In this document: positions 11,970 through 14,004 of the stretch, one piece after another
Position numbering within the stretch: the stretch's first letter is position 1
Layout: each line of letters opens with the position of its first letter
Assembly (NCBI RefSeq): GCF_003018235.1
Contig: NZ_CP027437.1
Direction: 5' to 3' (one strand)
DNA: 64,000 nucleotides
Source of the DNA: Escherichia coli
GTDB taxonomy: Bacteria; Pseudomonadota; Gammaproteobacteria; Enterobacterales; Enterobacteriaceae
Made by a program: the position numbers and the translations under genes
Notes under the pieces: model-generated
What the model saw: only the letters and a program-made list of their open reading frames with translations
What the model was told of the DNA's origin: nothing
Database searches by the model: none

Positions 11970-12383
11970 TCAGATGGTTTTCAGTATGCGATCGATGTCG
12001 CCGTCATCGCCCGGGTTTCTGCCATCGTATGCCATGCCAGCTGATACGGCTTGCGGGCTGTGCATGTCCATAAAGTTTTCAAAGGCTGCGGTAAGCTCTG
12101 GTGCAACCTTCAGGCGTTCCTGCTCTATGGTCATGCTAAGGATGCTTTTAGCCGTACCAACATCGATACAAGGCACGTTTGCCATTGCACGTAACAGCGG
12201 CTGATAGTCGCCAGATTCATCAAGCGCCATAATCGCATCAGAGCGCGGCTTGTCCTTCTCTTCCAGGCTGTTAAGTTGATATACGGCCTCGTAGGTTGAT
12301 AAACCTCTGTCAGCCATTGCCCGCGCTTCGGCCTTAAATTTACTCGCCAGCGGTAGCGTCATGATGCTTTCATTCGTTGCCAT
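11970..12383 (-). CDS. hypothetical protein, last gene of capsid operon
   Basis: 137 aa acidic ORF directly after the decoration gene; no family recognised. Confidence 0.55.
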   Translation of the reverse strand: MATNESIMTLPLASKFKAEARAMADRGLSTYEAVYQLNSLEEKDKPRSDAIMALDESGDYQPLLRAMANVPCIDVGTAKSILSMTIEQERLKVAPELTAAFENFMDMHSPQAVSAGMAYDGRNPGDDGDIDRILKTI

Positions 12384-12395
12384 CGTTACCCCTGC

Positions 12396-12731
12396 TTATC
12401 GCGCCAGCGGCTGAACGGATACGCCAGAACCCGCAAAGGCGGCGCATTTTTTCGCGTCGGTGTCGACGCTCTCAGGCCAGTTTACAGCGGCGATATTGAA
12501 TATCCCCGCCTTGTAGCACTGTGCTGATTTCTGCTTTGACGTGTCCACGGGGTACGACGTCAGGTAAACAGCCTTGCCCGATTCCTGACCATCCCACGGT
12601 TTAAACTCGCCATTGTCCGCCAGCATCAGCGGGGTAAATTCCTGAATAACGCCAGCATCAGCGGCAAAATGTACCAGCGTCGTGGCGACCTGCTGACTGC
12701 CTGCAAATAACTCAATGTATGGAGTGTCCAT
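12396..12731 (-). CDS. head decoration protein, lambda gpD-like
   Basis: 111 aa; TPLMLADNGEFKPWDG ... KAGIF ... WPE ... AKKCAAFAGSGVSV resembles gpD as I recall it. Confidence 0.7.
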   Translation of the reverse strand: MDTPYIELFAGSQQVATTLVHFAADAGVIQEFTPLMLADNGEFKPWDGQESGKAVYLTSYPVDTSKQKSAQCYKAGIFNIAAVNWPESVDTDAKKCAAFAGSGVSVQPLAR

Positions 12732-12742
12732 AGAATTCCCCG

Positions 12743-13798
12743 TTAACCAATTTTGACGGTAACAAATTTGCGAATATCTGCCGGTACCGGCTGCGGTGCG
12801 CTGTGTGTCTGCACGTACTCAATCGCCGGATCGCCGTCTTCAATCCAGTTTTTCGGGTAGAACATGTTTTGCGTTGCGCCCGTTCTTACCGCTTCCTGAT
12901 CCATAATCGCACCATAGGCCACCAGCCCTTTATTGTTGGTGTTACCCAGGACCAGCAAATCAGGCTCAAGGAAATATTTTTCGGTGCCGTCGCTGTCAGT
13001 GTATTTGCCGGAATAGACGATAAGGGCCAGATCACCAAGATAGCCTTTAAAGCTCACCACTTCGCCCAGGTTTTTACAGGCCAGTTCGGCGGCGGATTCT
13101 GAACCACGGGAAAGATCGTACAGCTCACGGAATTTTTTAAAGCTGCGTAATGTGCGCCATACCTCAGCGCCCATAATCATGACGTTTGCGGGGCAACCAG
13201 CCTGATCAGCATAAAGCTCGATGTCATAGATTGGGTCGTGCATGTCTTTATCCTGCTCGGACCATTTTTTACCATTGGCCTGCTCTATGATGCAGTTTTC
13301 CGGTATTTTCCAGTCGATTTCATAGCGTTCTATGCCTTCGCCCTCAATGATGTTTTTTCCGGTCGTTACCGCATTCACCGCCAGCCATTCCACGCGTGCC
13401 TTAATGGCGTTTATCTGGCGGCGCACGTTGCCAGTAATCAGGCGCATGCGTCGGTATGTAGGGTCGTTAAGCTGTGCCGGATCTTCTCCAGCCATGCGCA
13501 TGATGGTTTTTGTTGGATCGATTTCATGCTTTGGCTTCATGTAGCCGGGTTTAATCGTGCTGGTTTCGTACCCTTTATCGCGCTGGACATGGCTACCCAC
13601 CATAGGCGAACAGAACGCTGACATCGTAACCTCTTCAATGTCCAGGGTGTCCAGCATGATGCTTTGGGTGTTGAAGGTCGCCACGTTCGGGAAAAACAGC
13701 GTGGTAAACAGCGGACTGAATTTAAATTCAGCAATATCCCCGCGATTCAGGTACGCGAAAAGCTGGTTAGTGTTAAGTGCCGTTGCTTTTCCTGCCAT
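12743..13798 (-). CDS. major capsid protein, lambda gpE-like
   Basis: 351 aa; KPGYMKPKHEIDP, DPTYRRMRLI, FKGYLGDLALIVYSGKY, LVLGNTNNKGLVAYGAIMD, YPKNWIEDGDPA match gpE blocks. Confidence 0.88.
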   Translation of the reverse strand: MAGKATALNTNQLFAYLNRGDIAEFKFSPLFTTLFFPNVATFNTQSIMLDTLDIEEVTMSAFCSPMVGSHVQRDKGYETSTIKPGYMKPKHEIDPTKTIMRMAGEDPAQLNDPTYRRMRLITGNVRRQINAIKARVEWLAVNAVTTGKNIIEGEGIERYEIDWKIPENCIIEQANGKKWSEQDKDMHDPIYDIELYADQAGCPANVMIMGAEVWRTLRSFKKFRELYDLSRGSESAAELACKNLGEVVSFKGYLGDLALIVYSGKYTDSDGTEKYFLEPDLLVLGNTNNKGLVAYGAIMDQEAVRTGATQNMFYPKNWIEDGDPAIEYVQTHSAPQPVPADIRKFVTVKIG

Positions 13799-14004
13799 TA
13801 TTCACCCCCATGAGTCTGATTCATGCCCAGCGCCGCGCGTAAATAGGCGCGTACCTGCCAGCCTGTTGACGGCTCAACCATCGCCAGCGGATCAAGTCCT
13901 GCCGCAATGCCTGCTTTTACGTTCTGCTGGTGGCGTTCCTTGAGCGCCTCCACGATGTCGGGGCTTATGTACACCGAAACACCGCCTTTTTTCTCTTCTG
14001 CCAT
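13798..14004 (-). CDS. hypothetical protein translationally coupled to the capsid gene
   Basis: 68 aa; stop overlaps the capsid start by 1 nt; AGAGG ribosome-binding site. Confidence 0.5.
   Translation of the reverse strand: MAEEKKGGVSVYISPDIVEALKERHQQNVKAGIAAGLDPLAMVEPSTGWQVRAYLRAALGMNQTHGGE

Follow-up and report, generated by a model that had tools for sequence, protein, structure and literature searches.

EcCICFT073 is the model Gram-negative phage-inducible chromosomal island (PICI), and two of its genes, c1499 and c1500, were named in 2018 as a putative capsid gene and a head decoration gene, respectively (PMC6092414). Only for EcCICFT073 has it been shown that a helper phage induces the island, which then replicates and is transferred at high frequency (PMC6092414). 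A capsid homologue occurs in 21 of the 29 reference Gram-negative PICIs (PMC10111431), and SatelliteFinder treats "capsid morphogenesis" as a core PICI component, with the capsid genes of PICIs and of capsid-forming PICIs (cf-PICIs) lying in separate clades (PMC10085698). Here, we analyze an island in a 64,000-nucleotide stretch of Escherichia coli DNA (NCBI RefSeq assembly GCF_003018235.1, contig NZ_CP027437.1; hereafter the window, whose positions are used throughout), and in particular its four-gene capsid module at 11970-14004. The element is near certainly an EcCICFT073-type Gram-negative PICI, a satellite of lambda-like cos phages that carries the conserved capsid morphogenesis module.

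The island shares with satellite P4 an integrase, an AlpA-type regulator, Icd-like genes, C4/isrK-type RNAs, a length of ~11 kb and cos packaging by a helper. However, P4 has no capsid gene and uses P2-type helper heads, whereas the island has lambda-type cos sites and lambda-type head homologues. PHROG and NCBIfam profile scans covered 16 island open reading frames (ORFs), including all ten of at least 97 aa taken as genes, and returned no match to the Sid, Psu or Delta families. cf-PICIs such as EcCIEDL933, whose int/alpA/rep genes are reported to be identical to those of EcCICFT073 and EcCIED1a, likewise encode their own major capsid protein, but they also encode portal, protease, head-tail connectors, an HNH protein and both terminase subunits; from the helper they take tails alone. 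None of this set (portal, maturation protease, head-tail adaptor/connector, or TerL and TerS with HNH) was found in the ORF scans of the island. In Staphylococcus aureus, the pathogenicity island (SaPI) SaPIbov5 is also a satellite without portal or terminase that carries a helper-type HK97-fold capsid homologue, Ccm, and is packaged through cos by a cos helper. By contrast with the capsid protein studied here, Ccm is 23% identical to the helper capsid protein, changes prolate into small isometric heads, and is accompanied by neither a decoration nor a scaffold homologue; the orthologous island EcCICFT073 showed no size change with lambda, although the islands described there were marked inside the module. 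Lastly, the helper-embedded PICI Eco567.11capE belongs to the same PICI family and has this kind of capsid gene in its "late zone" (PMC10111431), but it lies inside one of the late genes of the prophage that serves as its helper, whereas the present island is chromosomal.

A reading of the window made from its letters alone (the sequence-only reading) had contrasted the island with P4 and with capsid-forming satellites, in agreement with this literature. It had also proposed an intermediate strategy. The element, however, is neither P4-like in its morphogenesis nor a new, intermediate class: it is an EcCICFT073-family PICI at phoQ/roxA with no Sid, Psu or Delta match, and for enterobacterial PICIs a capsid homologue unaccompanied by portal, protease or terminase has already been listed among the core components (PMC10085698; 21 of 29, PMC10111431). 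The gene content is hence the ordinary state of enterobacterial PICIs and the element is already described. What we add is a scaffold assignment, data on selection, a promoter-like site and leader hairpin belonging to the module itself, and a caveat on the markers used in published work. Among open-access papers and preprints, we found no report after 2018 on the function of these genes.

Head proteins encoded by the module

The four genes of the module all lie on the minus strand, in the order 68-aa protein (13798-14004), 351-aa major capsid protein (12743-13798, orthologue of c1499), 111-aa decoration protein (12396-12731, orthologue of c1500) and a 137-aa protein (11970-12383, orthologue of c1501). 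The stop codon of the 68-aa gene overlaps the start of the capsid gene (TAATG), the two remaining gaps measure 11 and 12 nt and are each provided with a Shine-Dalgarno motif, and no frameshift was found in any of the four genes, which bears out the earlier proposal of one coupled operon.

Over residues 26-349, the 351-aa protein matched the Pfam family Phage_cap_E (PF03864; 4.4e-50), and its match to PHROG 29, "major head protein", reached 1e-107. Over residues 24-351 it aligned with lambda gpE at 43% identity with two gaps only. Among structures in the PDB, it matched the lambda capsid structure 7VI9 (3.7e-80) and, over its full length, the nearly identical chain 3BQW (9.3e-231), a 351-aa "putative capsid protein of prophage" that we take to come from CFT073. 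Apart from an island-specific N-terminal arm that is eight residues longer, it aligns colinearly with functional phage capsid proteins of triangulation number 7 (T=7). The nearest phage capsid proteins are at most 47% identical to it, which points to an old satellite lineage and not to a recent capture. We also considered as possible satellites the "phage" records of ~20 kb whose capsid protein is 44% identical; these proved to be partial myoviruses with complete lambda-type head gene sets. The 111-aa protein matched the Pfam family HDPD (PF02924; 2.3e-17) and PDB entry 1TD0 (1.5e-13), and was 36% identical to lambda gpD and 44% identical to the phage 21 decoration protein (SHP). As judged by homology, the two proteins are thus confirmed as a major capsid protein of the lambda gpE family and a head decoration (cement) protein of the gpD/SHP family, the identities that the sequence-only reading had assigned and that it had wished to see checked by profiles.

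The 137-aa protein was traced to the Nu3 scaffold of lambdoid phages by several searches. Residues 45-119 matched positions 494-567 of the 583 in PHROG 53 ("head maturation protease", the lambda gpC/Nu3 family) at 5.6e-08. A tblastn search of all phage records returned only the Nu3/gpC C-termini of 21-type lambdoid phages; BLASTP aligned the protein with residues 115-192 of phage 21 Nu3 at 36% identity over 83 residues (7e-10), and profile-profile comparison (hhalign) of the 137-aa family with the Nu3 family gave a probability of 94.5% (E = 7.7e-08). The matching part of Nu3 comprises the last of its ~35-residue repeats and the C-terminal tail. There was no significant match in Pfam or NCBIfam, and a profile search against PDB sequences returned nothing. 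A further Nu3-like repeat in residues 1-46 was considered and was not significant (21 of 500 shuffles against the protein's own C-terminus, 179 of 500 against Nu3), and the PGAP name "phage head-tail connector protein", carried by some orthologues, was unsupported by any profile match here. We regard the 137-aa protein as a short homologue of Nu3-type scaffolds, whose scaffold action is predicted from this homology. Its CFT073 counterpart, c1501, is also 137 aa long and carries no annotation in the original supplement (PMC6092414), and a search of open-access papers and preprints found none that links Nu3 to PICIs.

The module therefore holds homologues of phage E (43-45% identity to the lambda and phage 21 capsid proteins), of D/shp (36-44%) and of the C-terminal repeat and tail of phage 21 Nu3 (36%). 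Its arrangement nevertheless differs from that of lambda and phage 21. The island order is E-D-scaffold, whereas that of the phages is scaffold-D-E; the island scaffold gene is free-standing and encodes a product about two-thirds as long, whereas phage Nu3 is nested in frame in the 3' part of the protease gene C; and the island has the 68-aa gene and the longer capsid N-arm in addition.

The 68-aa protein belongs to PHROG 3255, a family of unknown function (4.9e-38), and had no significant match in Pfam or NCBIfam. Likewise, no match was found in 50,697 phage records or in the head regions of lambda, phage 21 and myoviruses. Its relatives are confined to Enterobacteriaceae, where they adjoin these capsid genes. 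An AlphaFold2 (AF2) model of moderate confidence comprised strands and two helices, with a predicted local distance difference test (pLDDT) score of 74, and gave no significant fold match in the PDB; a hint of a ribbon-helix-helix fold had E = 5 and is not evidence.

Control and conservation of the module

A sigma-70-like site precedes the capsid unit at 14060-14087 on the minus strand, with a -35 hexamer TTGCAC (14087-14082), a 16-nt spacer and a -10 hexamer TATAAT (14065-14060); a palindrome, TTGCA-N5-TGCAA, spans the -35. We take this site to be the putative promoter of the unit. Just ahead of the ribosome-binding site (RBS) of the 68-aa gene lies a promoter-proximal hairpin with a T-run (14026-14056, minus strand; terminator scan match 14056-14037). 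Its stem has 13 bp in most relatives, and folding indicates that only the upper 8 bp pair well here. Across 33 distinct relatives, the last 90 nt ahead of the 68-aa gene are nearly invariant and contain, in order, TTGCAC, 16 nt, TATAAT, the hairpin, the T-run and a strong RBS. In the corresponding alignment of 33 distinct sequences, 93.4% of cells in the hairpin were paired and three pairs showed compensatory changes, a level reached by 4 of 500 shuffles. One divergent island retains a hairpin and T-run of different sequence. The 5' arm of the hairpin abuts the -10 hexamer (region 14026-14090; loci L003 and L006-L090), and the hairpin could be a terminator or attenuator or, alternatively, a palindromic operator. 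Comparison of the leader with phage records revealed no similarity, and so no direct tie to a helper late promoter.

Further upstream, a second leader hairpin with a T-run (14159-14211, minus strand; inverted repeat I3) is kept in five of six aligned islands. A predicted intrinsic terminator at 14372-14402 (minus strand; GCCGGAGCAATCCGGC followed by a T-run) closes the upstream replication/PerC unit, and another at 11933-11963 (minus strand; GCCGGAGAAATCCGGC followed by TTTTTT) lies 7 nt past the stop codon of the 137-aa gene. The two are copies of the same 31-nt element (repeat family D2) and are 94% identical. From these sequence signals, we read the module as a separately controlled unit whose expression may be gated at a promoter-proximal terminator or operator. 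A 17-nt sequence at 14075-14091 recurs in inverted orientation at 21506-21522, in the int-proximal attachment (att) region (94% complementary, inverted repeat I7); it may be a site for a shared regulator or a chance recurrence.

To place the module among its relatives, we used 5426 complete E. coli genomes and 80 further copies from viral contigs (IMG/VR, loci L011-L090). It is present in 597 of the complete genomes, about one in nine, at many sites and with 82-96% identity; the best match was at least 90% identical in 596 of them. The island as a whole was covered to at most 78-79%, at ~90% identity, in any one of these genomes. Among viral-contig relatives in which the gene in question is complete within the contig, the ORF was intact in 80 of 80 for the capsid gene, 79 of 80 for the 68-aa gene, 77 of 78 for the decoration gene and 69 of 76 for the scaffold-like gene, and several of the failures of the last appear to be a different allele and not damage. 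Pooled ratios of nonsynonymous to synonymous polymorphism (pN/pS) were 0.15 for the capsid, 0.32 for the 68-aa, 0.10 for the decoration and 0.30 for the scaffold-like gene, at pS of 0.13-0.29 (0.13-0.19 for the capsid and decoration genes), and a smaller, hand-picked set agreed with these pooled values. The module is maintained by purifying selection.

Some relatives lie in other settings. In E. coli CFIAFB20180511 (locus L006), an 82%-identical module with a scaffold-like protein of 115 aa that lacks the FENFMDMHSP tail motif stands directly beside P2-like baseplate and tail genes, and may itself be part of a myovirus prophage. Among the 80 viral-contig relatives, three adjoin lambda-type portal genes, two of them a protease gene as well; these three are probably helper-embedded copies. 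A distant relative in Pluralibacter gergoviae (L091/L092) keeps the order 68-aa, capsid, decoration, and no recognisable scaffold homologue follows; the frameshift in its capsid gene, to which we return below, is present on both NCBI and Logan contigs.

The surrounding island

The island occupies 10106..21505 on the minus strand (11.37 kb) and is flanked by phoQ (8564-10024) and roxA (21698-22828). Its borders are imperfect direct repeats (10106-10180 and 21480-21554, spacing 11374) whose first ~26 nt agree at all but one position. A tyrosine integrase gene marks one end (20229-21479; PHROG 1, 3.8e-75), with the gene for an AlpA-family regulator beside it (19666-19854; PHROG 2790, "excisionase and transcriptional regulator", 1.7e-17). 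Family scans identified a RepA-type helicase/primase gene (15916-17325) and ssb, for a single-stranded DNA-binding protein (14693-15103). Directly 3' of the helicase/primase gene are iterons (15717-15923; repeat families D3/D4, three copies ~84 nt apart and a 34-nt pair), which are expected, from their sequence and position, to form the replication origin of the island. The island thus has the hallmarks of Gram-negative PICIs: an integrase and a specific att site, AlpA beside int, a replicase with a predicted 3' origin, a capsid homologue, helper-type cos sites, a length within the 10-20 kb range, and no tail or lysis family in the ORF scans. A small terminase homologue or intact Rpp, also typical of PICIs, is represented only by a truncated, frameshifted rpp remnant.

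The island resembles EcCICFT073 in its roxA/phoQ site, in the equal lengths and order of the four module genes, which are 94-97% identical in DNA gene by gene, in its two inverted cos sites and in the layout of int, alpA and the replication genes. It differs in that its rpp (c1503) is a remnant, in encoding a RepA-type helicase where CFT073 has a primase-family protein, and in a module leader that is ~150 nt longer. Both cos sites are of lambda type: cos1 at 11864-11940 on the minus strand, with GGGCGGCGACCT at 11898-11909, and cos2, inverted relative to cos1, at 11242-11318 on the plus strand, with GGGCGGCGACCT at 11273-11284. Together they form inverted repeat I1 (77 nt, 84% complementary, 545 nt apart). 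In EcCICFT073, both sites are functional, and deletion of cos2 raised lambda-mediated transfer (PMC6092414). Alignment with CFT073, the RppA sequence and the ORFs placed the rpp remnant between the two sites (11522-11731, minus strand). What survives is approximately the C-terminal third of RppA, with a frameshift at the 3' end and without the N-terminal helix-turn-helix domain, which has been deleted; this arrangement is present in two of the 5426 complete E. coli genomes. Since rpp is degraded, this island may now transfer poorly. At the same position, 39 of the 80 viral-contig relatives have a full-length Nu1-like TerS, ~35% identical to lambda gpNu1 over residues 3-180.

No portal, protease, large or small terminase, tail or lysis gene was found among the 16 scanned ORFs, and in this respect the sequence-only reading, which had seen capsid genes without any portal or packaging machinery, was right as to intact genes. 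It was too broad in that two cos sites and the rpp remnant are present. The lack of an intact packaging gene here reflects decay and is not true of the family.

The rest of the island includes several other features. A 130-aa ORF with a GTG start (14410-14802, minus strand) encodes a PerC-like activator; profiles cover its residues 41-129 only and it overlaps the 3' end of ssb, so that its real start is probably internal. A conserved 97-aa gene (10926-11219) was first suspected to be Rpp, but it had no PDB match, and Rpp is c1503, which is degraded here. In the regulatory zone, a C4 antisense RNA (78.4 bits) adjoins isrK (63.5 bits) at 18345-18533 on the minus strand; these are immunity RNAs of the P4 CI/seqA type, and C4/CI-type immunity RNA has also been reported in Gram-negative PICIs. 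ORF scans also revealed Icd-like peptides. A 504-aa open frame (18099-19613, minus strand) without plausible protein character spans the C4/isrK region and two Icd-like peptide segments, and runs antisense to a YlcI/YnfO-like gene (18922-19119, plus strand). It is almost certainly not a single gene, although ~1.5 kb without stop codons is still unusual.

Possible roles of the module

A lambda head contains about 415 copies of gpE and a similar number of gpD, and many copies of Nu3 take part in its making; portal, protease, completion proteins and terminase are needed in a dozen copies or act catalytically. We tentatively favour, as the likeliest of the readings considered, that the module supplies the bulk shell parts, which would be built on an initiator of helper portal and protease into heads of full size that consist of island protein in whole or in part; the assembly steps are ones that we infer. 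The module would work as a self-contained transcription unit, with its own promoter-like site, a promoter-proximal terminator-like hairpin and terminators on either side. It would provide the high-copy parts of a lambda-type head, namely the capsid protein, the decoration or cement protein and a short Nu3-type scaffold, together with the island-specific 68-aa protein, while the low-copy parts (portal, protease, head completion proteins, terminase and tails) would come from the helper. Upon induction of the helper, the island proteins would assemble on its portal/protease initiator into phage-sized (T=7) shells, either alone or with helper capsid protein. Helper terminase would then fill these shells from island concatemers cut at the island cos, four 11.37-kb units amounting to 45.5 kb, and the island decoration protein would stabilise them after expansion. 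The benefit would lie in an extra or helper-independent supply of shells and not in re-sizing, and it would be conditional, because transfer by three laboratory helpers does not need the module.

Several lines of evidence are consistent with such a role. Trimers of the gpD type bind only expanded lambda heads, and the decoration protein of the island is strongly constrained and has diverged together with the capsid protein, which argues that island capsid protein ends in expanded, DNA-filled heads and not in decoys. The cognate scaffold and the island-specific N-arm suggest a matched assembly pair. Moreover, four units of 11.37 kb (45.5 kb) correspond to 94% of the 48.5 kb of lambda, and sister islands measure 10.6-11.4 kb. 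A unit of about one quarter of a lambda headful fits the phage-sized DNA that was found in particles of EcCICFT073 with lambda (PMC6092414), and argues against small heads.

Several observations weigh against this proposal. Deletion of c1499 or c1500 left transfer by the resident helper unchanged and did not relieve interference with lambda, and an island carrying c1499::cat was still transferred, at up to 10^6/ml with phage 80 (PMC6092414). Interference and packaging redirection have been assigned to c1503 (RppA), the sole post-ori gene that inhibits lambda when expressed singly (PMC6739421). The module is hence dispensable for interference with lambda and for transfer by lambda, phage 80 and the CFT073 helper. 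It can also be lost, as in the P. gergoviae relative, the capsid gene of which is frameshifted after about residue 178. As for the proteins, we infer the presence of island proteins in particles, their binding to the portal and the scaffold action of the 137-aa protein. Homology of the latter to Nu3 is limited to residues 47-131, and its AF2 model is all-helical and of low confidence (pLDDT 62), so that it was not used for a fold search. The sequence-only reading had offered both small proteins as candidate scaffold or size-determination factors; this fits the 137-aa protein as a homologue of the Nu3 C-terminus but not the 68-aa protein, which is island-specific, translationally coupled to the capsid gene and without an assignable role.

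The published negative results come with a caveat. The islands of the 2018 study were marked with c1501::tetA, in the scaffold-like gene, or with c1499::cat, in which cat replaces the capsid gene, and it was the c1501::tetA island from which c1499 or c1500 was deleted (PMC6092414). With the markers inside the module, open-access work compares no intact module with a clean deletion, and the negatives are therefore not decisive; single-gene expression tests (PMC6739421) would miss a function that needs all four proteins. The checks that the sequence-only reading had called for, deletion of the capsid gene and its effect on transfer and helper, are largely already in print for the orthologues, with transfer and lambda interference unchanged (PMC6092414). 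That the module supplies the shell is thus put forward as a hypothesis; the published data speak against a requirement for it, with the caveat that the modules concerned were disrupted by markers. A bolder version, which we consider rather unlikely, is that the scaffold, capsid and cement genes form a "shell kit" with which an ordinary PICI makes lambda-sized heads of its own, borrowing portal, protease and terminase. If true, satellites would have a third strategy, placed between the remodelling of capsids (P4, SaPI) and their complete formation (cf-PICI), and it would have gone unnoticed because all tested EcCICFT073 derivatives had their selection marker within the module (c1501::tetA or c1499::cat). 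On the same assumption, expression of the module would be tied to a late signal of the helper through the conserved promoter-proximal hairpin.

For a change of head size there is precedent. The capsid homologue Ccm of SaPIbov5 makes small heads, as does PmCI172, a Gram-negative PICI with a capsid homologue, and the PICI capsid gene is thought to modify hijacked capsids (SatelliteFinder; PMC10085698). Island capsid and scaffold proteins could bias helper assembly toward small heads with room for one or two island genomes but not for that of the helper. The DNA packaged with lambda was nevertheless phage-sized; the island in question was named only "EcCICFT073", and if it was a marked version, its module was disrupted (PMC6092414). 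In addition, the island unit comes very close to a quarter of a lambda headful, which suits T=7, a T=4 lambda-type head would hold an estimated ~17-21 kb and fit one or two units poorly, and the full-length capsid protein aligns colinearly with its T=7 phage counterparts. We therefore judge size redirection to be improbable. Interference or defence, in which island shell proteins would poison head assembly in lambdoid phages, helpers or otherwise, by co-assembling with or sequestering their capsid or scaffold proteins, seems improbable as well. The Nu3 repeat and tail recur in the scaffold-like protein, which could bind phage partners, interference with helpers is common among PICIs, and published tests covered lambda, phage 80 and HK97 only, and single genes only (PMC6739421). 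However, the c1499 and c1500 deletions brought lambda no relief and single-gene expression no inhibition, an arms race predicts faster protein evolution than a pN/pS of 0.10-0.15, and it is not obvious what a conserved decoration protein would do in a poison.

The remaining explanations look to the history of the module. In this family, E is the integration site of helper-embedded PICIs, for which a back-up copy was proposed (PMC10111431); an island copy would then replace the interrupted late gene of the helper, mostly E, and would be carried along in chromosomal islands as a legacy. The three of 80 viral-contig relatives that adjoin portal or protease genes would suit such a life, but no phage capsid protein exceeds 47% identity to that of the island, a simple back-up has no need of separate decoration and scaffold genes, and this island and most copies are at chromosomal sites and yet strongly constrained; we find a back-up role highly doubtful. 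Lastly, the module might be a non-functional remnant of captured phage late genes that is kept by linkage. This is very improbable: although no phenotype was found in EcCICFT073, the Pluralibacter capsid gene is frameshifted and the neighbouring rpp is degraded in this island, pN/pS is 0.10-0.15 at pS 0.13-0.19, the capsid gene is intact in 80 of 80 relatives, and the leader and coupling signals are conserved.

Collectively, three results sharpen the question of what the module does: the homology of the 137-aa protein to a scaffold, the set of high-copy lambda head proteins that the module encodes, and the origin of the published negatives in islands with a disrupted module. Should the products of the module indeed be incorporated into particles, members of this common satellite family would in part make their own heads, which would bear on the spread of virulence genes by satellites and on the use of satellites as engineered delivery vehicles.

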